This document shows, piece after piece, positions 7,475 through 45,387 of a DNA stretch of 64,000 bases. The position numbers and the translations under genes are program-made. The DNA is from an uncultured Christensenellaceae bacterium. GTDB lineage: Bacteria; Bacillota; Clostridia; Christensenellales; UBA1242. Positions within the stretch are counted from its first letter, which is position 1. The number at the start of each line of letters is the position of its first letter. The notes below the pieces were generated by a model that searched no databases, had not been told where the DNA came from, and saw nothing but the letters and a program-made list of their open reading frames with translations. The stretch is taken from contig CAJULT010000001.1 in NCBI GenBank assembly GCA_910587225.1, positions 42,753-106,752 on the forward strand, in the 5' to 3' direction.

Positions 7475-8200
7475 ATGAAAAATATTATATTCAAAATAAA
7501 GTTATTTTTTTATAATCTATTTCATAAAAGGAGTTTATTAAATACTAAAAATATTGTCTGCTATCTTATAAGCGAGCAGCTGCCAAACCCGCTAACGCTT
7601 GAAGAGGAGGAGGCACTTTTAATTGCGCGTGATAATGGAGATGCAACGGCTGTTGAAAAACTGATAGAACATAACCTTAGACTTGTTATTTTTATTTCAA
7701 AACGCTTTAAAGGTCCTAACATTGAAGCGGAGGACATTATTTCAATAGGGTCTATTGGGCTTATCAAAGCAATCAAGACATTTAAGATTGATAAAAATAT
7801 CAGGCTTGCAACTTACGCCTCGCGCTGCATTGAGAATGAAATTTTGATGTATCTTAGAAAAGCTAATAAGAGCATGAATGATTTAAGTCTTGACAGGCCA
7901 ATTCATACAGACGGCGAGGGTAACGAGCTTTGCCTAAGCGACATTATTCCAATAGACGGAGATATAGTTGAGCAGGGCATTGACAAGGCGGAAGATAAGA
8001 AGGTGTTATTTGAACTTTTGGAAGGACTTAATGTACGCGATCAGGAAATTATGATAATGCGCTATGGGCTTGGCGGGCAGGACGAACTTACTCAAAAAGA
8101 AATTGCCGAAAAGATGAATATAAGTCAAAGTTATATTTCTCGTCTTGAAAAAAGAATTCTTGTGCAGATGAGAAAGAAATACGAGCGTCAAGTCCTTTAG
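7475..8200 (+). CDS. sigE: Sporulation sigma factor E (pro-sigma-E)
   Basis: Sigma-70 regions 2-4, an N-terminal pro-sequence and spoIIGA-sigE-sigG synteny. Confidence 0.9.
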   Translation: MKNIIFKIKLFFYNLFHKRSLLNTKNIVCYLISEQLPNPLTLEEEEALLIARDNGDATAVEKLIEHNLRLVIFISKRFKGPNIEAEDIISIGSIGLIKAIKTFKIDKNIRLATYASRCIENEILMYLRKANKSMNDLSLDRPIHTDGEGNELCLSDIIPIDGDIVEQGIDKAEDKKVLFELLEGLNVRDQEIMIMRYGLGGQDELTQKEIAEKMNISQSYISRLEKRILVQMRKKYERQVL

Positions 8201-8348
8201 ACTGCAATAAAACTTCGCGATCGTAATTTTTTCAAAATTACTTGCTGCGTTAACTGTAAAACGCCCCAAAACAGTCATTTAGGTTTACTAAACTCCTGCT
8301 TTGGGACATTTTCCGAGCCTTGCCTCGCTGGTTTTCTTGCAGTCTAAA
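8196..8348 (+). promoter_or_regulatory. Nested hairpin structure in the sigE-sigG spacer
   Basis: A perfect 12-bp outer stem, TTTAGACTGCAA (8196-8207) with TTGCAGTCTAAA (8337-8348), encloses two hairpins at 8223-8241 and 8265-8305. Confidence 0.6.
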
Positions 8349-8461
8349 ACTGCTTATATTGTCTTTTTTTAATATTTTTTAGCGTTTTTTAGCACATTTG
8401 CCTTACTTATGAATTAAAATATCAATTTCGCCAACAATATCCCATGAATAATGGAGGTAGT

Positions 8462-9274: not shown

Positions 9275-9556
9275 GTGGAAACTTCATTTTTGGAATTACG
9301 TTGTAAAGAGGTTGTTAATGTCCTAGACGGGCGAAGGCTTGGGCATATTGTAGATATGGTGCTGGATTTGCCGTCAGGGCAGATGTTGGGTTTTGTAGTG
9401 CCGGGTGAAAAGACATTTTGGAATGTGTTTAAAGGCGGCTCACAGCTTTTTATTCCTTTTGGATGCATTGTAAAAATAGGGGAAGATACAATCTTAGTGC
9501 AGCTGGGCGGGCAAGCACCAAATCCGTATATCTTGTCTAACGACAATAAAAAATGA
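9275..9556 (+). CDS. ylmC: YlmC/YmxH-family sporulation protein (PRC-barrel)
   Basis: ELRCKEVVNVLDGRRLGHIVDMVLD is typical of the YlmC/YmxH family. Lies downstream of sigG. Confidence 0.8.
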   Translation: METSFLELRCKEVVNVLDGRRLGHIVDMVLDLPSGQMLGFVVPGEKTFWNVFKGGSQLFIPFGCIVKIGEDTILVQLGGQAPNPYILSNDNKK

Positions 9557-9612
9557 CGCTTGGGCGTCATTTTTTAGTGAATAGTGAAAAAGTGAAAGAG
9601 TGAAAAAGTTAA
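9548..9612. repeat. Direct repeat copy 1: bidirectional terminator hairpin plus a 4 x 8-bp AGTGAAnn array
   Basis: aaaaaatgacgcttgggcgtcatttttt followed by agtgaat agtgaaaa agtgaaag agtgaaaa agttaagg. Confidence 0.85.
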
Positions 9613-9629
9613 GGACAGCCGTTGGCTGT

Positions 9630-9866: not shown

Positions 9867-9954
9867 TTTATCACCTCCTTTGTTTGCATTATACATTTGT
9901 TTTTGAAGAAAAAAGCCGATATTCGTTATAAAGTATGAAAAATTTTTAGAAAAG

Positions 9955-10022
9955 AAAAAATGGCGCGTGGGCGTCATTTTTTTAATGAATAAATGAAAGA
10001 ATGAAACAATGAATAAATTAAG
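9955..10022. repeat. Direct repeat copy 2: terminator hairpin plus a 4 x 8-bp AATGAAnn array
   Basis: aaaaaatggcgcgtgggcgtcattttttt followed by aatgaata aatgaaag aatgaaac aatgaata aattaagg. Confidence 0.85.
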
Positions 10023-10069
10023 GTCGGGAAACGCCTAAAAACAGGCGAAGCTTAATAAAAGACGAAGTC

Positions 10070-10616: not shown

Positions 10617-10847
10617 ATGAAAAACCTATTAGATTGTAAGTTTAATCGTGAATATGTTGTCAAGGACATTGACAAAAATTTGCCGCTAAAAGTAAGAAGG
10701 CGGCTACTCGAACTGGGCTTTACAAATGGAACTCTGGTTACGCTTGTGCGTTCAAGTAGTCTTAAAAAGGCGTACCTTATAACGCTGCGCGGTTACACAC
10801 TTTCTTTGAGGGCGGATCTTGCTAGGGCGGTGATTATAGATGATTAA
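10617..10847 (+). CDS. feoA: Ferrous iron transport protein A
   Basis: Small FeoA-like protein whose end overlaps the feoB start. Confidence 0.8.
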   Translation: MKNLLDCKFNREYVVKDIDKNLPLKVRRRLLELGFTNGTLVTLVRSSSLKKAYLITLRGYTLSLRADLARAVIIDD

Positions 10848-12930
10848 AGTAAATTTAGTTGGAAATCCTAACACTGGAAAAACCACTCTATTTAATCTGC
10901 TTACCGGCGCACATGAGCATGTAGGCAACTGGCATGGAGTGACGGTAGAGGAAAAGGTTTCTCGTTACAAATTCAAAAACGAGGAGATTGAGCTTTGTGA
11001 CCTTCCCGGACTTTATTCACTGACGCCGCTAAGCTATGAGGAAGAAGTCGCCGCAGATTTCATTTTAAAAAATCCCGATAGGCTTATTGTCAACATCTGC
11101 GACCAGAGCAATTTGCAGCGGAATTTATACCTTACCCTTTCTCTTTTGGAAAGGGGGTGCAAGGTTATCTTGGCGGTAAATCAAATTGAAAAAAGACCGC
11201 TATGCAAAATTGACTATGGGAAACTTTCTCAGCTTTTAGGCATTCCTGTTGTTGCAATCAACGCAGAGCGAAAGGAGGACGGGGAAAAGCTTAACCAAAA
11301 GATTTTGGGGTTTAAAGGGGGAACGAAATATAATCTTCCCTATCTTAACAAACTCCACCTTAATGAAATTCCAAAAGTTTCGGATGAGGCGAGTGATTTT
11401 TATAAAATAAAGCTACTCGAAGGGGATGAAAAGATTTGCGCTAAGTTTTCATCAAGTATTGCTCCGCAACCTGAAAAGGTGGCAGATGCTAGGTATGACT
11501 ATATCGATCAAATTATGAAGCTTGTCAGCGGCAAGCGGGAGCGGGTTTACGGACAAAGTAAGTTTGATAAAATTCTTATGAACAGGTTTTTGGCATTTCC
11601 TATCTTTTTAGGGATGCTTGCACTAGTATTTTATTTAACCTTCTTTTCTTTTGGGGCGTGGCTTAGTGACCTGATGAGCTGGCTGCTTGAAACATGCATT
11701 GGACAGCCGATATTAAATCTTTTAACTTCTCATCTGGGGCAGTCAAGTTGGGTTTGCGGACTTTTTGAAACGGCGGTTATTGGCGGGGTGGGTTCAATTC
11801 TCAGTTTCCTGCCGCAAGTGGCGCTTCTGTTTTTCTTCCTTTCAATACTAGAAGATAGTGGTTATCTTGCCCGTGTCGCTTTCGCGATTGAAGATATACT
11901 TGGCAAGGTTGGGCTTTCAGGAAAGAGTGTCTATACACTTTTAATGGGGTTTGGCTGCTCGACAACTGCGGTACTTACCGCTCGTAACATGGAAGACAAG
12001 AATGCCAAAATAAAAACTGGACTTTTGACGCCGTATATGAGTTGCAGTGCAAAGTTTCCTATTTACTCTGTGCTAGGTGGGGCGTTCTTCGGTGCGAGCA
12101 ATATTCTAGTTATTTTAGGGTTATATCTTTTAGGCGTTGTAGTCGCGCTTATTATCAGCTTAATTTTTGAAAAGACGGTTTTAAAGAGCAAAGAGCAGAA
12201 CTTTATTCTTGAATTTCCTCCATATCATGCAATGAGTGCAAAGCGTGTGGCGAGAGTTTTATTTGACAATGTTAAGTCCTTTGTATTGCGAGTAGGCTCG
12301 CTGATTGTAGCCATGAATGTTATAGTTTGGGTGCTTGGCAATTTTACTTTTACCTTTAAATACATTCCGTCAAGTGGTGGAGTGAGCATACTTGAAACTT
12401 TGGGAAAAATATTTGCGCCTATATTTATTCCGCTTGGTTTTGGCAGCTGGGCGCCAGTATCTGCCTTGCTTGCTGGGCTGGTTGCAAAAGAGGTTATCAT
12501 ATCTTCCCTTGCTATGTTTAACGGAGCAAGCGATGCGGGAGCGGGAGCTATTGCAAATTCCTTTCACGACCCGGCAAGCGCCGCCTATTTTGCGTCGGGT
12601 GCGAGCGTAATAAGCTATCTTGTTTTCTGCCTTTTATACTTTCCTTGTCTTGCAACCACATCTGTTCTTTCAAAAGAGATAGGCAGAAAGTGGACGGCTA
12701 TTGGAATTATAGTCGAGCTTATCGTTGCATATATCACCGCATGGGTGGTTTATACGCTTGCTCGCACTATTGAAAGTTTTGGAGCGATGAAAGTGCTATT
12801 AACGCTTTTAGGGATTTTCGTGATAATCCTTTCAGTTATTTTTGTGTGGAGGCGTCTTAAAAAGAAAAAAGCTTGTCCTTTTTCGTCAAAATGTAAGAAA
12901 AATTGCGCGAAAGCCAAAAAAGAAAAATAA
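10840..12930 (+). CDS. feoB: Ferrous iron transporter FeoB
   Basis: N-terminal G-domain GNPNTGKTTLFN and a polytopic membrane domain. Has a Cys/Lys-rich C-terminal tail. Confidence 0.92.
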   Translation: MIKVNLVGNPNTGKTTLFNLLTGAHEHVGNWHGVTVEEKVSRYKFKNEEIELCDLPGLYSLTPLSYEEEVAADFILKNPDRLIVNICDQSNLQRNLYLTLSLLERGCKVILAVNQIEKRPLCKIDYGKLSQLLGIPVVAINAERKEDGEKLNQKILGFKGGTKYNLPYLNKLHLNEIPKVSDEASDFYKIKLLEGDEKICAKFSSSIAPQPEKVADARYDYIDQIMKLVSGKRERVYGQSKFDKILMNRFLAFPIFLGMLALVFYLTFFSFGAWLSDLMSWLLETCIGQPILNLLTSHLGQSSWVCGLFETAVIGGVGSILSFLPQVALLFFFLSILEDSGYLARVAFAIEDILGKVGLSGKSVYTLLMGFGCSTTAVLTARNMEDKNAKIKTGLLTPYMSCSAKFPIYSVLGGAFFGASNILVILGLYLLGVVVALIISLIFEKTVLKSKEQNFILEFPPYHAMSAKRVARVLFDNVKSFVLRVGSLIVAMNVIVWVLGNFTFTFKYIPSSGGVSILETLGKIFAPIFIPLGFGSWAPVSALLAGLVAKEVIISSLAMFNGASDAGAGAIANSFHDPASAAYFASGASVISYLVFCLLYFPCLATTSVLSKEIGRKWTAIGIIVELIVAYITAWVVYTLARTIESFGAMKVLLTLLGIFVIILSVIFVWRRLKKKKACPFSSKCKKNCAKAKKEK

Positions 12931-15106: not shown

Positions 15107-16582
15107 ATGGAAAAATATGAAATCTATGATGATATTAAATCCAGAACAGGCGGCGATATATATGTCGGAGTGGTAGGCCCAGTACGCGTTGGAAAGTCTA
15201 CCTTTATTACCGAATTTATGAAAAAGCTTGTTCTTCCAAATATCACCGAGAAAAATGCAAAAGAAAGAACTGTTGATGAGCTTCCTCAATCAGCAGACGG
15301 AAAAACTATCATGACTACTCAGCCGCATTTTGTGCCAAACGAGGCGGTAAAAATCAAGGTTGCTAACGCGGACATGAGAGTAAGAATGATTGACTGCGTT
15401 GGGTATCTTGTAAGCGGCGTTATGGGACATACCGAAAACGAGAAACCACGCCTTGTTAAAACTCCTTGGTCTGAAAAGGAAATGCCTTTTGAAGAGGCGG
15501 CGGAACTTGGCACTAAAAAGGTAATGCAGGAACATTCAACTGTTGGCCTTGTAGTGACAACTGACGGTAGCGTTACCGAGCTTGCAAGAGCAAACTATGT
15601 GGAAGCTGAGGAGAGAGTTGTAGCAGAAATGAAGGCGACAGGCAAACCATTTGTTATGGTGCTTAACACTAAAAACCCAAGCTCTGCTGAAACTAAGAAA
15701 CTAGCAAATGGGCTTAGTGATAAGTACGATGTGCCAGTAGTTGCAGTTGACGCGCTTGACCTTAAAGAAGGGGATATTGACAAGATATTTGAAAAAATGC
15801 TTGGCGAGTTTCCTATTCAATCTATTCGCGTTAAAATGCCAGAGTGGCTTAGAGCGCTTTCTTATGATGATGAGATTATCACCGAAATTGCAAACGAAAT
15901 GCGCAAAATGGGAAGCTCAATCACAAAGTTAAGTCAAATGGACAAAAATCAGTTGGCTTTTACCGAAAGTGCAGCGTTTGACCCTATCACTTTCTCTAAT
16001 ATTGAACTTGGCGAAGGTATCGTTAAATTCAATGTAATACCAAAGGATGACTTATTCTATCGCGTGCTTAGCAAAGAGTGCGGTTATGAAATTAAAGATG
16101 ACTACTGCCTTGTAAACTATATTAAAGAGCTTGCAATTGCTAAACTCGAATATGACAAAATTAAGTTTGCGCTTGACCAAGTTAAAGAAACTGGCTATGG
16201 CATTGTTGAGCCTCGTCGCGAAGAGTTTGTACTTGGTGAACCTGAAATTATCAAGCAGGGTAGCCGTTTCGGCGTTAAGCTTAAAGCGTCAGCACCATCT
16301 CTTCACATTATGCGTGTAGATGTTGATACTGAGGTTACTCCACTTGTGGGAACTGAAACTCAAAGCCAAGACCTTGCTAAAAATCTTATGGAACAGTTTG
16401 AGGCTAACCCTGAAACTATCTGGAACACAAATATTCTCGGTCGCAGCCTAGACAGCCTTATCGGCGACAATATTGCGTCTAAGATAGTTATGATGCCTGT
16501 TGAGGCACAAAACAAGATGCGCAAAACTTTGGGCAGAATTATTAACGAGGGGAAAGGCGGAGTAATATGTATATTACTATGA
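15107..16582 (+). CDS. spoIVA: Stage IV sporulation protein A (spore coat morphogenetic ATPase)
   Basis: N-terminal Walker A VGPVRVGKSTFI and 491 aa length. The SpoIVA-like sequence runs throughout. Confidence 0.93.
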   Translation: MEKYEIYDDIKSRTGGDIYVGVVGPVRVGKSTFITEFMKKLVLPNITEKNAKERTVDELPQSADGKTIMTTQPHFVPNEAVKIKVANADMRVRMIDCVGYLVSGVMGHTENEKPRLVKTPWSEKEMPFEEAAELGTKKVMQEHSTVGLVVTTDGSVTELARANYVEAEERVVAEMKATGKPFVMVLNTKNPSSAETKKLANGLSDKYDVPVVAVDALDLKEGDIDKIFEKMLGEFPIQSIRVKMPEWLRALSYDDEIITEIANEMRKMGSSITKLSQMDKNQLAFTESAAFDPITFSNIELGEGIVKFNVIPKDDLFYRVLSKECGYEIKDDYCLVNYIKELAIAKLEYDKIKFALDQVKETGYGIVEPRREEFVLGEPEIIKQGSRFGVKLKASAPSLHIMRVDVDTEVTPLVGTETQSQDLAKNLMEQFEANPETIWNTNILGRSLDSLIGDNIASKIVMMPVEAQNKMRKTLGRIINEGKGGVICILL

Positions 16583-16583
16583 T

Positions 16584-16758
16584 GCGGGCGGCAACTAGGA
16601 TTTTTTAACGCCAGTACGCCTTGCGGCTAGTGGCTAAAATCCGTTTCCCCCACATGCCCCTTTTAGCCCCCTTGAAAATTTCGTACCGACAATTTTCTGG
16701 CGGGGAGAGGTGTTCAACAAATTTTATAGCCGCGCAAAGCGCTTCCCCTATAAAATTT
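16584..16758 (+). repeat. Structured intergenic element, copy A (candidate ncRNA or 3' UTR element)
   Basis: Aligns over about 175 nt with 41794-41968. It has four helices, three of which carry compensatory changes between the copies. Confidence 0.8.
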
Positions 16759-16776
16759 ATTGACTTAATAAAAAAT

Positions 16777-16802
16777 AAAAGCAGCCATGAGGCTGCTTTT
16801 TT
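16777..16802. terminator. Bidirectional intrinsic terminator
   Basis: AGCAGCC-atga-GGCTGCT flanked by A and T runs. Confidence 0.7.
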
Positions 16803-16947
16803 ATCGCTGAAAAATAATAAGTTGAAATAAAGTATCATTTTTATTTTTGATTAAGAAATAGTTTGGAAATCTTTCAGCATTTTTTAATAAATTTTCTTCT
16901 GTAAGTACATTTAAATATTCTGTCAAAAATTCCATGATTTCGTTCAT
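16801..16947 (-). CDS. Hypothetical 48-aa protein divergent from the XRE regulator
   Basis: ATG at 16947 is preceded by GGAGGTAAAAAT. No recognisable family. Confidence 0.45.
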   Translation of the reverse strand: MNEIMEFLTEYLNVLTEENLLKNAERFPNYFLIKNKNDTLFQLIIFQR

Positions 16948-39300: not shown

Positions 39301-39317
39301 TATTTTATGAGGTGCTA

Positions 39318-39998
39318 ATGAAAAAGCGATATTCTCGGATAGAGAAAGAGATAATGAAATTTGACATTGTCAAGCAGGGCTATTTTGACGAAGATATAGT
39401 ATATGCAATTCAATGTGCTGAAAAAGGAATGGTGGAAGAGTATCAAGAGGAAGTAAAATTTTATGATAAGGTCCGCAAGCTTATTGGCGAGCAAATCATG
39501 CCTTGGTTTGAAGCAAGTTATGACATTGCTTGTGAGGAATTAGAGGGAGATTATACTTTTGCAAAAATAGCAGGCTTTACAACCGTGGCAGCGGAAGCTT
39601 TAACTGCAACGCTGCTTCGCGAGCATCCTGATGCGGCGCTTGTGCTATGCGGCGCGATTGCGGGGGGGGGACTTGCAGGTATCCTTGGCCCATTTACCCA
39701 CGTGGGTATAGCTAAAAAGAATGTTAGAACTTATGATAAACTTTTATACGAGTGGTACGAATTTAGCTGTTCACTAACATATATTAAAGACTTTGTAAAA
39801 CTGAATAACCTTACCGTCTTGGAAGATGATGAAACTGGCGAGATTATGTTTGATGAGGAATGTCTTGAACAACTTTACAATGATTATGTATATTTTCCTG
39901 CTGAAACAAAGATTTATGAAGATAGAAAAGCGTTATCAAAAACTGTAAAAGACATTTGCAAAGGAAAGATTGAGGCGGCGGAAGTAGAAGAGGTTTAA
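39318..39998 (+). CDS. Hypothetical protein, paralog family member 2, with an internal G9 tract
   Basis: ATG at 39318 after a GAGGTG RBS. The G9 run at 39662-39670 encodes the GGG of AIAGGGLAG. Confidence 0.7.
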   Translation: MKKRYSRIEKEIMKFDIVKQGYFDEDIVYAIQCAEKGMVEEYQEEVKFYDKVRKLIGEQIMPWFEASYDIACEELEGDYTFAKIAGFTTVAAEALTATLLREHPDAALVLCGAIAGGGLAGILGPFTHVGIAKKNVRTYDKLLYEWYEFSCSLTYIKDFVKLNNLTVLEDDETGEIMFDEECLEQLYNDYVYFPAETKIYEDRKALSKTVKDICKGKIEAAEVEEV

Positions 39999-40012: not shown

Positions 40013-40621
40013 ATGAATAAAAAACAAAGAATAACATCAGAAAAATATAGAAGATACTGCATTGACATGTTTGACAAAAGTTTTGGCGATATTGACCCGA
40101 AATTTGGCAAAAGAGTAATTGTCTTTGCGGTATGGCATGATGTGGTTGAGCCTGCACGAAAGAAGGAAGATGCAAAATTTACAATTAGATTTGGCAATAA
40201 ATATGTAGATGAAAACAAACTTGCACTTGAAGAATTTGATCGCTTTAAGGATAGCAGGTCGTATGTTGAATTGTTTATGAACCTTAACGGCATTTCAACC
40301 GAAATGCGAGGTGGAGTGCTGCATGCTTATAGAACTAGTGATGAGCCTTTCCGTTCGCCAGTGCTTGCTGCGATGAAAGGGGAAGATATTAAGTGTGATA
40401 CCTTTATTTGCACTAGTCAAATTCTTGCAGACTTTAAGGAATTTAATTACTTCGTGGACAACGAGTTTATTAGGGAAACTATGCTTGAAGTTTTGCAACG
40501 AAAGCTAGATAATAACCTTCATCCGCCCAAAGATTTTACTAAGGGGCTTGATAAAGAGTTCGACATTGACGACATCCAAAGAAGGCTCGAAAGTTCTAGC
40601 GCTAAAAAAGACGATGAATAA
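40013..40621 (+). CDS. Hypothetical protein, distant paralog family member 3
   Basis: SRSYVELFMNLNGIS aligns with TYIREFLNLNNLEF and TYIKDFVKLNNLTV of members 1 and 2. Confidence 0.65.
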   Translation: MNKKQRITSEKYRRYCIDMFDKSFGDIDPKFGKRVIVFAVWHDVVEPARKKEDAKFTIRFGNKYVDENKLALEEFDRFKDSRSYVELFMNLNGISTEMRGGVLHAYRTSDEPFRSPVLAAMKGEDIKCDTFICTSQILADFKEFNYFVDNEFIRETMLEVLQRKLDNNLHPPKDFTKGLDKEFDIDDIQRRLESSSAKKDDE

Positions 40622-40656: not shown

Positions 40657-40685
40657 TTGACAAAGGGTGGCTAGTTAGGTATAAT
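40657..40685 (+). promoter_or_regulatory. str operon promoter TTGACA-17-TATAAT
   Basis: Both hexamers are perfect consensus, at 40657-40662 and 40680-40685. Confidence 0.7.
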
Positions 40686-40896: not shown

Positions 40897-41283
40897 ATGC
40901 CAACAATAAACCAACTTGTTAAGAAAGGTCGTAAAACTTTCGAGAAGAAGTCAAAAGCTCCACTTCTTGAACAGTGTCCTCAAAAAAGAGGGGTGTGCCT
41001 CTCTGTAAGGACTGCTACACCAAAGAAACCTAACTCAGCTCTTCGTAAGATTGCCAGAGTTAAACTTTCAAATGGACAAGAAGGAACTTGCTACATCCCG
41101 GGCGTTGGACACAACTTGCAAGAGCACAGTGTTGTTCTCATCCGTGGTGGAAGAGTTAAGGACCTGCCTGGTGTTCGTTATCACATCGTTCGCGGAACAC
41201 TTGATACCGCCGGCGTGCAGAACAGAAAGCAAGGTCGTTCTAAATACGGCGCTAAACGCCCAAAAACACAAAATAAAAAGTAA
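40897..41283 (+). CDS. rpsL: 30S ribosomal protein S12
   Basis: [12 protein letters not shown]...[10 protein letters not shown]. Confidence 0.97.
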
Positions 41284-41315: not shown

Positions 41316-41789
41316 ATGCCAAGAAGAAATAGTGCCGTTAAGAAAGATGTTCTTCCTGATCCAATTTACAATTCAAAAGTTGTTACTAAACTTGTTAACC
41401 AAGTTATGTTGAGTGGTAAAAAGGGTCTTGCACAGAGAATTGTTTACGGAGCATTCGACATTATTAAAGAAAAAACTGGCGCGCAGCCACTTGATGTTTT
41501 CAATGCAGCTGTTGAAAATGTTAAACCAGTGCTTGAAACCAAGTCTAGAAGAGTTGGTGGTGCAACCTACCAAGTTCCAATGGAAATCAGACCTGAAAGA
41601 CGTCAAACACTTGCAATTCGCTGGATTGTAGACTTTGCAAGAAAGCGCAGCGGTGAACGTACAATGGACGGACGCCTTGCAGGCGAAATCATGGATGCTT
41701 ATAATAACACAGGCGCATCTATTAAACGTCGTGATGAAATGCACAGAATGGCGGAAGCTAATAAGGCTTTTGCACACTTTAAGTGGTAA
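41316..41789 (+). CDS. rpsG: 30S ribosomal protein S7
   Basis: [20 protein letters not shown]...AHFKW. Confidence 0.97.
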
Positions 41790-41793
41790 TGTC

Positions 41794-41968
41794 GCGGGCG
41801 ACAACTAGAATTTTAACGCCATACGCCTTGACGGCTAGTGGCTAAAATTCGTTTTCCCCACGTGCCCCTTTTAGCCTTGCTGAAAATTTCCGCTGGACAA
41901 TTTTCTAGCAAGAGAAGTTGCTAACAAATTTTTGAGGTCGGGCAAAGCCCTTCTTCCATCAAAAATTT
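41794..41968 (+). repeat. Structured intergenic element, copy B (between rpsG and fusA)
   Basis: Homologous to 16584-16758, in the same orientation as the flanking genes. Confidence 0.8.
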
Positions 41969-42020
41969 CTTAGCGGATTAAAGGGTTTTAATCAATCTAA
42001 TTAAAAGGAAGAATAAATTT

Positions 42021-44096
42021 ATGGCTACAAACCTAGAATTAACCAGAAATGTTGGTATTATGGCGCACATCGACGCTGGTAAAACTACAACTACTGAGCG
42101 TATCTTGTATTATACCGGTAAAAGTCATAAGATAGGTGAGGTTCATGACGGCGCTGCTACCATGGACTGGATGGCTCAGGAGCAGGAACGTGGTATTACC
42201 ATTACTTCCGCTTGTACCACTTGTGAGTGGAAAGGCCACAAAATCAACATTATCGATACCCCGGGACACGTTGACTTCACAATCGAAGTTGAGCGTTCAC
42301 TTAAAGTCCTTGACGGGTCTGTTCTTGTGCTATCAGCGCGCGACAAAGTTCAGCCTCAAACTGAAACTGTTTGGCGTCAAGCTACAAGATATAAAGTTCC
42401 TATCATCATATATGTAAATAAGATGGATAGAGATGCTGCCGATTTCTTCGGCTGCGTACAGTCTATTAAAACTAGACTTAAAACTAATCCGCTTCCAATT
42501 CAAATGCCTATTGGAGCAGAGGATAACTTCCGTGGAATTATCGACATTCTTACCATGAAAGCTGAAATATATAAAGATGACATGGGTAAAGAGATTGAAA
42601 TTACCGAAATTCCTGCTGAGCTTAAAGCAGAAGCTCAAAAACTTCATGACGAAGTTATTGAAAAAATCGTTGAAACTGATGACGCTCTTCTTGAAAGATA
42701 CTTTGAAGGGGAAGAAATCAGCCTTGACGAACTTAAAAAGGCAATTCGTAAGGCTACAATCAGCAAAGCTCTTACACCAGTTCTTTGCGGATCATCTTAC
42801 AAGAACAAGGGTGTTCAAATGCTTCTTGACGCTATGGTAGACTATCTGCCAAGCCCACTTGACATTGAACATATTACTGGTATTAACCCAGATACAGGGG
42901 AAGAGGAAAGCCGCGCTCCAAGTGAGACTGCTCCATTCTCTGGTCTTGCATTTAAGATTATGACTGACCCTTATGTTGGTGGACTTACCTTCTTCCGTGT
43001 TTACTCTGGTAAACTTATGGCTGGAAGTTATGTTTACAACTCTAACAACGGCAAGACTGAACGTGTTGGTCGACTAATTCGAATGCACTCAAATCAACGT
43101 CAGGAAATTTCTGAGGTTGGCGCTGGTGACATTGCCGCAATCGTAGGTCTTAAAGATACTATCACAGGACACACTCTTTGTGATGAAAAACATCCTATCC
43201 AACTTGAAAGTATGGAGTTCCCTGACCCAGTTATTCAGCTCGCTATTGAGCCTAAAACTAAGGATATGCAGGAAAAAATGAGCCTTGCGCTTGCAAAACT
43301 TATGCGTGAAGACCCTTCTTTCCGTGTTACTACAAGCCAGGAAACTGGACAAACTCTTATCGCCGGCATGGGCGAACTTCACCTTGAAATCATTGTAGAT
43401 CGTCTTCTTCGTGAATTTAAGGTTGAGGCAAACATCGGTGATCCACAAGTTTCTTACCGTGAAACAATCAGAAAACCTGTTAAAGCTGAGGGTAAATTCA
43501 TCCGTCAGAGCGGTGGTAAGGGACAATATGGACACTGCGTAATTGAAATGGAGCCACTTCCAGCAGGAACTGGTTACGAATTCGTAGATAAGACAGTAGG
43601 TGGATCTATTCCAAAAGAATATATTCAACCTGTTAACAATGGTATTCAAGAAGCTTCTCATAACGGTGTACTTGCCGGCTATGAAACTGTTGACTTTAGA
43701 GTAACCGTTGTTGACGGCTCATACCACGAAGTTGACTCTTCTGAAATGGCGTTCAAGATTGCCGGATCTATGGCATTCCAAGACGCTGCTAAGAAGGCAG
43801 ACCCAGTAATCTTAGAGCCTATTATGAAGGTTCAAGTTGAAGTGCCTGAAGACTATCTTGGTACTGTTATGGGTAACCTTACTTCAAGAAGAGGTATGCT
43901 TACTGGTAACGAAACTAAGGCGGACGTTCAAGTAATCAACGCTGAAGTTCCACTTGCAAATATGTTCGGTTATGCAACAGACCTCCGTTCTCAAACTCAA
44001 GGTCGTGGAACATTTACTATGGAGTTCTTGAAATATCAAGAAGTTCCACGTTCTATCGCAGAAGATATTATTGGCGCTAGAGCTAAAAAGAACTAA
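42021..44096 (+). CDS. fusA: Elongation factor G
   Basis: [23 protein letters not shown], 691 aa. Confidence 0.97.
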
Positions 44097-44125: not shown

Positions 44126-44153
44126 TTGAAAAAAATGTTTTGTATGCTAAAAT
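44126..44153 (+). promoter_or_regulatory. Candidate internal tuf promoter TTGAAA-16-(TGc)TAAAAT
   Basis: Hexamers at 44126-44131 and 44148-44153 in the fusA-tuf spacer. Confidence 0.4.
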
Positions 44154-44187: not shown

Positions 44188-45387
44188 ATGGCTGGAGTTT
44201 TTAATAGAAACAAACCACACGTAAACATTGGTACCGTTGGACACGTAGACCACGGTAAAACCACTCTTACCGCTGCAATTACTATGACACTTGCTGCAGA
44301 AGGTAAGGCTGAACAGATGAGATATGATCAAATCGACAAAGCGCCTGAGGAAAAAGCAAGAGGTATTACAATTAATACTTCTCACGTTGAGTATGAAACT
44401 GACAAACGTCACTATGCTCACGTTGACTGCCCGGGACACGCTGACTACGTAAAAAACATGATCACTGGTGCTGCTCAAATGGATGGAGCTATCCTTGTTG
44501 TTGCTGCAACTGATGGTCCTATGCCTCAAACTAGAGAGCATATCCTTCTTGCTCGTCAAGTAGGCGTTCCTTACATCGTAGTTTTCATGAACAAGACCGA
44601 TCAAGTTGACGATCCTGAACTTCTTGAACTCGTTGAAATGGAAATCCGTGACCTTCTTTCTGAGTATGGATTCCCAGGAGATGACACTCCAATTATCAAA
44701 GGCTCAGCGCTTAAAGCACTTGAAGCTGCTCAAGCTGGTAATGCAAATGCCCCTGCTTGTGACTGCATTCGTGAACTTATGGCTGCTGTTGATAGCTTTA
44801 TCCCTGATCCATTACGCGATACTGATAAACCATTCCTTATGCCAGTTGAAGACGTATTTACAATCACTGGTCGTGGTACCGTTGCTACTGGTAGAGTAGA
44901 GCGTGGATCTGTTAAGGTTGGCGATGTTGTAGAACTCGTTGGTCTTGGCGAATCTAAACAAACAGTTGTTACTGGCGTGGAAATGTTCCACAAGTCACTT
45001 GACGCTGCAATCGCAGGCGACAATGCTGGACTTCTTCTTCGTGGTATTGATAGAAAGGGTATTGAGAGAGGACAAGTTCTCTGCAAACCTGGTTCAATTC
45101 ACCCACACACTAAGTTCGTTGCTGAAGTATACGTTCTTAAGAAAGAAGAGGGTGGCCGTCACACTCCATTCTTCAATGGATATAGACCACAATTCTATTT
45201 CAGAACAACAGACATCACTGGTGTTATCGAACTTGAAAAGGGCGTAGAAATGGTTATGCCTGGTGACCACGTTAATATGACTGTAAGCCTTATTAACCCA
45301 ATCGCTATCGAACAAGGACTTCGTTTCGCTATCCGTGAAGGTGGCAGAACAGTTGGTTCTGGTGTCGTTTCTTCAATCATCGAATAA
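44188..45387 (+). CDS. tuf: Elongation factor Tu
   Basis: [22 protein letters not shown], 399 aa. Confidence 0.98.

Follow-up and report, generated by a model that had tools for sequence, protein, structure and literature searches.

The structured element between rpsG and fusA is probably one copy of an interspersed, non-coding, hairpin-rich repeat of about 181 nt, a small non-autonomous mobile element of the REP, MITE or bcr kind found in a clade of uncultured mouse-gut Clostridia. Comparison within the clade showed that different loci are occupied in related species, while the orthologous sites elsewhere are empty. The window, that is, the whole 64,000-nt stretch of DNA analysed in this study, contains two copies, copy A behind spoIVA and copy B in the str operon (Table 1). 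An earlier note on this DNA had treated copy B as a two-state RNA switch. Its str gene and helix coordinates were exact, and the second copy that it placed in the 3'UTR of a sporulation gene was confirmed behind spoIVA (16584-16764).

Table 1. Features of the window and junctions of the repeat with the preceding stop codon (the slash marks the start of the element)
Feature	Position or junction	Strand	Remarks
Second, unrelated structured repeat family	8204-8365	+	directly past the sigE (7475-8200) stop; sigE-sigG (8444) spacer
spoIVA	15107-16582	+	PF09547, PF20438, PF20439; TGA stop 16580-16582
Copy A of the repeat	16584-16764	+	cmsearch 180.8 bits; begins 1 nt past the spoIVA stop
Copy A hairpin domains	P1 16583-16654, P2 16656-16713, P3 16714-16763	+
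Bidirectional intrinsic terminator	16775-16805	.	older than the insertion; in relatives ~10 nt past the spoIVA stop
Sigma-70-type consensus promoter TTGACA-17-TATAAT	40657-40685	+	5' of rpsL; hexamer matches 12/12
rpsL	40897-41283		str operon gene
rpsG (ribosomal protein S7)	41316-41789	+	PF00177; TAA stop 41787-41789
Copy B, structured repeat of ~181-184 nt	41792-41975	+	cmsearch 188.7 bits; 2-3 nt after the rpsG stop
Copy B hairpin domains	P1 41791-41865, P2 41868-41917, P3 41920-41974	+
Native fusA leader, ~45 nt	41976-42020	+	small hairpin 41977-41992; RBS AAAGGAAG; outside the repeat
fusA (EF-G)	42021-44096	+
tuf	44188-45387		str operon gene
Junction of copy A	TGA-T/GCGGG
Junction of copy B	TAA-TGT/CGCGGG
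Junction of copy C	TAA-CTC/GCGGG		upstream frame ends ...DDFGDFDE-stop
Junction of copy F	TAA-A/GCACCG
Junction of the L085 copy	TAA-GGCTGT/GCGGGG
Junction of the L076 sense fragment	TAA-GCCGT/GCGGGG
Junction of the L087 copy	TAG/GACAG

As the earlier note had described, the rpsG-fusA spacer is 231 nt long and is filled by the element together with one more hairpin, ATTAAA-GGGT-TTTAAT. The cmsearch hits and the junctions of the copies make the element wider than the 41794-41968 read at first. The small hairpin belongs to the fusA leader, which is orthologous to the final ~45-55 nt of the spacers of relatives, including relatives whose spacers hold other contents; its segment GGTTATAAATCT..AAAAGGAA is common to L073, L079 and L083 (L numbers denote loci of relatives). 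No promoter-like and no terminator-like site was found when the rpsG-fusA spacer was scanned. Because a promoter lies 5' of rpsL and the spacer contains neither kind of site, copy B is probably co-transcribed with rpsL-rpsG-fusA, which agrees with the earlier proposal, and the promoter upstream of rpsL is the likely source of the transcript that bears it. Stop codons interrupt all frames of copy B, which is therefore non-coding, and translations of the element gave no match in a protein database that was searched for wrongly called ORFs in other copies. A 229-aa S7 homologue (P0002) was considered as a possible read-through product and rejected; it does not read into the element and comes from a distant relative with an 18-nt spacer. 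Copy B is fixed within the species in all contigs seen, with two substitutions in one MAG.

Several other observations were made in and around the str operon. A low-depth contig of metagenome run X13 is 100% identical to the element over 183 nt (41792-41974), and in this contig the rpsG 3' end is diverged (CACTTCAAATGG vs CACTTTAAGTGG) and the junction reads TAA-AA/CGCGGG instead of TAA-TGT/CGCGGG. Possible explanations are that the site underwent insertion or conversion independently, or that the contig is chimeric through misassembly. The fusA-tuf spacer contains a promoter-like site with an extended -10 (44126-44153, TTGAAA-16-TG-TAAAAT); conservation of the segment around it in five relatives points to an internal tuf promoter. 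Two conserved ORFs lie between ligA and rpsL, at 39312-39998 (228 aa) and 40013-40621 (202 aa), and relatives have ORFs of similar size there (about 216-228 aa and 202 aa). Both ORFs were searched against Pfam and NCBIfam as candidates for a partner enzyme, and nothing was found.

Copies A and B are 73-79% identical. At the spoIVA site, three relatives with 84-86% SpoIVA identity have the stop codon, about 10 nt and then the terminator, and the element is absent. These empty sites identify copy A as an insertion between the spoIVA stop and a pre-existing terminator. Another repeat in the window lies at 9542-9615 and 9949-10024; the two occurrences of a near-identical terminator hairpin (AAAAAATGRCGCKTGGGCGTCATTTTTT, 88%) and the next ~30 nt are separated by about 407 nt, as if a small gene-plus-terminator module had been duplicated in tandem.

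Further copies were found in the same genome and in its relatives. Contigs of four mouse-gut metagenomes were aligned to both copies at 80% likeness. Run X1 yielded six or more distinct contigs with the element at the depth of this genome itself (11-16x), namely A, B, C, D, E and the diverged F; this number is a lower bound derived from contigs. Copy C differs from A at 7 positions in 112 nt, D at 14, and E at 16 in addition to indels. All of the metagenome alignments span 16584 to 16764, which defines the 181-nt unit. Several contigs terminate within the element, and a collapsed piece of 99 nt has twice the depth, which is the signature of a repeat. In its multiple dispersed copies, shorter than 300 bp and polymorphic for presence or absence between relatives, the element agrees with what is expected of a MITE.

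Relatives were located by protein searches with S7 and SpoIVA, and their contigs were then read. The fusA-tuf spacer measures 91-103 nt in five genomes, including the window, and 386 nt in L085, where a full sense copy follows immediately after the fusA TAA. In the sigE-sigG spacer, a diverged copy is present in L087 (30-62 bits) and none in L092 or L089. The rpsG-fusA spacer is only 12 nt and 18 nt long in more distant relatives, about 190 nt in L073, L079 and L081, where it is filled by a different hairpin element, and 361-368 nt in L083 and L084, where it holds other repeats. In L085, the otherwise universal rpsG-fusA pair is split by two ORFs (10627-11550; 92 aa and 194 aa), neither of which matched Pfam or NCBIfam. 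The 387-nt spacer of L076 (10475-10861; also L077:6608-6994) is composite. It consists of a sense fragment of the element (its initial ~42 nt), an RBS-region remnant like that of L085 (AAATTCTAGGCCGATAAGG), AT-rich DNA and a complete inverted copy, and the two P1 5' arms form a perfect inverted repeat of 16-17 nt (TTTTTAACGGCGACAC / GTGTCGCCGTTAAAAA). The relatives' rpsG-fusA spacers are thus short or differently filled, which is in line with the neutral insertion that the earlier note had named as the alternative to its switch. The other part of that alternative, a one-off event, did not hold: because copies exist at other loci, the element is a repeat family. The rpsL-rpsG spacer is also expanded in two relatives, to 131-182 nt (L083:9819-10000 and L085:9870-10000) vs 32 nt in the window, and a further repeat, CGCCGCCAAACGAAATCGC...GCGATTTGCGGC.ACTCTCGTGCGAAGAA, is common to the rpsG-fusA spacers of L083/L084 and L085. 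These expansions and the shared repeat indicate that several other small insertions populate the str operon of this clade.

Other searches added no copies. A broader covariance model (R2) found no more of them in 299 kb, and blastn of the element against plasmids and phages gave no match. The pattern TGGCTAAAAN{8,30}CCCTTTTAGCC matched 17 times in GTDB genomes, 45 times in JGI metagenomes and 0 times in IMG/VR; all of these matches were attributed to chance by blastn. The pattern is too strict for these negatives to say much about how widely the family occurs, since it misses even the L085 and L076 copies.

The element is structured and conserved, as the earlier note had claimed. Both copies in the window fold far more stably than shuffled sequence (z = -4.5 and -4.9), and each copy is predicted to form three hairpins. 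P1 is long and irregular, with its base a few nucleotides from the stop codon. The P2 hairpin has a pyrimidine/purine stem at its base, and GGGC-AAA-GCCC caps the long hairpin of P3. Covariation was examined after four diverged copies had been aligned, namely A, B, L085:13717-13899 and L076:10663-10845 (minus strand). The 41 consensus pairs show standard pairing in 95% of cells, and 16 of them have compensatory changes on both sides, compared with 2-4 in controls with slid partner columns; none of 500 shuffles reached the observed covariation values. Swaps in the inner part of P1 include GCCA/UGGC to GCGG/CCGC to GGCG/CGCC, and GCC/GGC to GGC/GCC. The alignment shows that the predicted three-hairpin fold is kept between copies by compensatory changes; the sequence diverges fast, and structure alone is kept. 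The antisense strand folds as well or better, with an equal or lower MFE and a consensus energy of -31.5 vs -24.8 kcal/mol for the sense strand. Neither G-U pairs nor fold energy tells sense from antisense as the functional strand. By itself, then, the modelled structure would not separate selection on the sense RNA from selection on single-stranded DNA during mobilisation.

The covariation data also bear on the proposed switch. It was held to be ligand-, protein- or RNase-responsive, to alternate between two helices, and to control fusA. Helix S1 (GAAUUUU/AAAAUUC as RNA) pairs GAATTTT at 41808-41814 with AAAATTC at 41844-41850 and is part of the covarying helix P1. Helix S2 (GGCUAAAA/UUUUAGCC as RNA) can indeed be drawn between GGCTAAAA at 41840-41847 and TTTTAGCC at 41869-41876, sharing the four A residues at 41844-41847 with S1, and copies A and B each allow either helix on paper. 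Since S2 is identical in A and B, these two copies are uninformative about it. In the more diverged copies S2 is not conserved and shows no covariation: its arms in L085, CGCTAAAA/TTTTCGCC (CGCUAAAA, UUUUCGCC), have two of eight pairs broken, and it is absent from the L076 and L087 copies. The G-to-C change in L085 that bears on S2 is compensated inside P1 (GCCA/UGGC to GCGG/CCGC) and not in S2. Energetics disfavour S2 as well. Forcing it costs 15.5 kcal/mol in copy A, 11.0 in copy B and 26.6 in L085, its pairs have an ensemble probability of about zero, and P1 is fully transcribed before the 3' arm of S2 exists. Nor was an expression platform found: the spacer contains no terminator, the fusA RBS is part of the native leader, beyond the element, instead of being sequestered, and copy A has no downstream gene. 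On neither strand did Rfam give a match for the whole window at the gathering threshold, and when the limit was relaxed to E <= 10 the two copies had only chance-level matches. One of these, to RT-14 (E = 0.84), spans the 3' end of the element plus fusA and was dismissed as chance. On this comparative evidence the switch reading appears largely refuted, and such a mechanism is very improbable.

The unusual property of the repeat is its placement. Eight copies could be placed (A, B, C, F, L085, L087, and the sense fragment and the inverted copy of L076); the flanks of D and E were not separable. Seven of the eight are in sense and start 0-6 nt past a stop codon (Table 1), the exception being the inverted copy of L076. 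Among all combinations of position and orientation in the 8.8 kb of intergenic DNA of the window, 2.4% lie within 0-6 nt after a stop in sense. Under uniform insertion this gives a crude binomial P of about 4e-11, which is a rough guide, as the null ignores selection. The gaps from stop to terminator and from stop to RBS are only 10-20 nt in these compact genomes and thus leave few other harmless positions, so filtering may explain part of the placement pattern. The precision of the stop adjacency and the sense bias exceed what simple filtering for tolerated sites explains, and might indicate that the RNA has a role linked to translation termination. A second structured repeat family, unrelated to the first, shows the same behaviour. 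In addition to its copy directly past sigE, it occurs at 10475-10665 in L073, L074, L075, L079, L081 and L082, following rpsG in several relatives, and it is the family that fills the rpsG-fusA spacer of L073, L079 and L081. It is recognised by the motifs GTCAYTTAGGTTT(T)ACTAARCTCC and CGAGCCTTGCCT and by the ends TTTTAAC...GTTAAAA.

These placements raise the question of whether the element works in cis as an RNA module coupled to translation termination, one that was copied to stop codons and retained there since it would function only in that position. A terminating ribosome would have to melt the base of P1, and the module would act as a protective 3' cap, a processing signal or a ribosome-release sensor for the upstream cistron. 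Beyond the stop adjacency and the sense orientation of the seven copies, this reading is favoured by the base of P1, which takes in the first nucleotides after the stop and covaries (AUG/CAU in A, CUGUG/CACAG in L085), by the compensatory changes that keep all three hairpins, and by the second family in the same position. REP elements of E. coli that lie no more than about 15 nt from a stop codon are also said, in work by Liang, Rudd and Deutscher from 2015, to stall terminating ribosomes. Against it, the genes that carry the element (rpsG, fusA, sigE, spoIVA and an unknown ORF) are unrelated to one another, close relatives lack the element at each of these sites, the L076 copy is inverted, and the antisense strand folds as well or better, so that nothing marks the sense RNA as the selected molecule. 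Such a module is the less favoured reading and rather unlikely. We are equally doubtful that both families are targeted to, or selected at, the first nucleotides after genuine stop codons in sense, whether by a termination-coupled function or by a targeting mechanism. If this were true, either insertion would recognise sites of translation termination by a mechanism not yet described, or the RNA would have a function that depends on the opening of the P1 base by the terminating ribosome, for example as a cistron 3' cap, in ribosome-release control or in the control of intercistronic processing in operons such as str.

The favoured reading is that of a non-autonomous mobile repeat. The element would be spread by a trans-acting enzyme encoded elsewhere in the genome, and its copies would survive only where they are harmless, between a stop codon and a terminator or the RBS of the next gene. 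There the transcript of the upstream gene would include it as 3'UTR or intercistronic RNA, and in this mRNA it would form a static stack of three hairpins that does not switch between two states. By analogy with REP, ERIC and bcr elements (PMC3184786, PMC3446304), its effect may at most be that of a 3' barrier or a processing site, with consequences for how stable the upstream segment is. No transposase was found in the ~360 kb of the clade that was read (the window and the loci of relatives). Comparison with empty sites revealed no target-site duplication at A (TGAT / TTAATA), C (AACTC / AAAATT) or L085. The 5' end CTAGAATTTT and the reverse complement of the 3' end have a weak likeness of ~10 nt by eye, and no TIR was called by a repeat finder. 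The lack of a transposase in the DNA read, of a duplication and of convincing TIRs counts against this reading, as do the stop adjacency with its sense bias and a known copy number (six or more) that is low for a classical REP or MITE family.

In a rival account, the element is a miniature derivative of a single-stranded DNA transposon of the IS200/IS605 or REP/RAYT type (PATE-like, possibly a guide-RNA scaffold), mobilised by an HUH transposase with an insertion bias relative to the replicating strand. The hairpins at both ends, the lack of a duplication or a clear TIR, and the ability of both DNA strands to fold agree with this account, and the head-to-head fragment and inverted copy of L076 are reminiscent of REPIN-like pairs. 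GC skew is positive across the window, which places the sense strands of A and B on the leading strand. Leading-strand orientation is expected for the single-stranded mode of transposition of IS608 and ISDra2. The orientation fits IS200/IS605 or REP/RAYT transposition and, equally, plain co-orientation with genes, with which any bias is confounded. The left flanks (TGAT, ACTC, ATGT, CTGT) share no target motif, whereas a conserved target of 4-5 nt would be expected beside the left end, and the right ends (TTGAC, TAGCG, TTACG) are unconserved. No tnpA, tnpB or RAYT gene was seen in the ~360 kb, and Rfam gave no match to HEARO or other guide-RNA families. A derivation of this type is improbable, though less so than the switch. 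A family of 3'UTR-derived, trans-acting small RNA genes would account for a structured RNA of ~180 nt at gene 3' ends, and in the case of copy A for the terminator that follows. The element lacks its own promoter, neither copy B nor the L085 copy has a terminator, and the sequence diverges fast between copies with structure alone kept; small RNA genes are thus a highly unlikely explanation.

The repeat reading has several consequences for these genomes. What looks like a conserved structured RNA of the str operon should be annotated as a lineage-specific repeat and not as a fusA regulator. For structured elements found in two copies in MAGs, repeat status should be checked before a riboswitch is called. 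The repeat also fragments the short-read assemblies of this species. In this clade, the rpsG-fusA, fusA-tuf, sigE-sigG and spoIVA 3' sites have been repeatedly colonised by structured repeats exactly at the stop codon. They may offer a natural system for studying how elements choose, or survive at, termination sites, and how a strong hairpin right after the stop affects termination, mRNA decay and operon polarity in Firmicutes.

Among known systems, riboswitches and other RNA switches resemble the element as structured non-coding RNAs within mRNA whose helices are supported by covariation. It differs from them in having no conserved alternative helix, no expression platform and no conserved core like a ligand pocket; moreover, it is an interspersed repeat and lies downstream of genes and not upstream. 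The bcr1-bcr3 elements of the Bacillus cereus group, which are MITE-like and ~150 nt long, are similarly Firmicute-specific, non-coding, multi-copy and structured, in a size range of 150-200 nt, but have no sequence similarity to the element. A TTTAT target duplication accompanies bcr1, and none was seen here. The bcr elements are non-coding, have a stable predicted structure, often lie in 3'UTR, 5'UTR or intercistronic transcripts, and vary in presence between close relatives (PMC3446304). Unlike the present element, they are not reported specifically at the first nucleotides after stop codons.

There is ample precedent for small, co-transcribed repeats at the 3' ends of genes, some of which change mRNA stability (PMC3184786; for bcr, PMC3446304). 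The REP/BIME and ERIC repeats of enterobacteria are likewise extragenic and palindromic, lie at gene 3' ends or within operons, and are co-transcribed, some of them altering mRNA stability (PMC3184786). REPs are GC-rich sequences of 20-40 nt with GTAG or CGTC heads and hundreds of copies (PMC3733652), whereas the element has 181 nt, three hairpins with AT-rich stems, no GTAG or CGTC head and about six or more copies. PATEs, which derive from IS200/IS605, and REPINs share with it the subterminal hairpins, the absence of TSDs and of clear TIRs, and a strand-biased orientation, which here is confounded with gene orientation; it differs from them in having no conserved target tetranucleotide, no partner transposase among the sequences read and no match to a guide-RNA family. 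The closest in kind are bcr1-3 and REP/ERIC, to which the element has no sequence relationship. Because its size and head are not those of a REP, it lacks the TSD of a MITE, and its flanks lack an IS200/IS605 target, it is filed in the broad class of small structured interspersed repeats and under no named family. Within this class, the stop-codon adjacency common to two families is the one property that specialists might find surprising.
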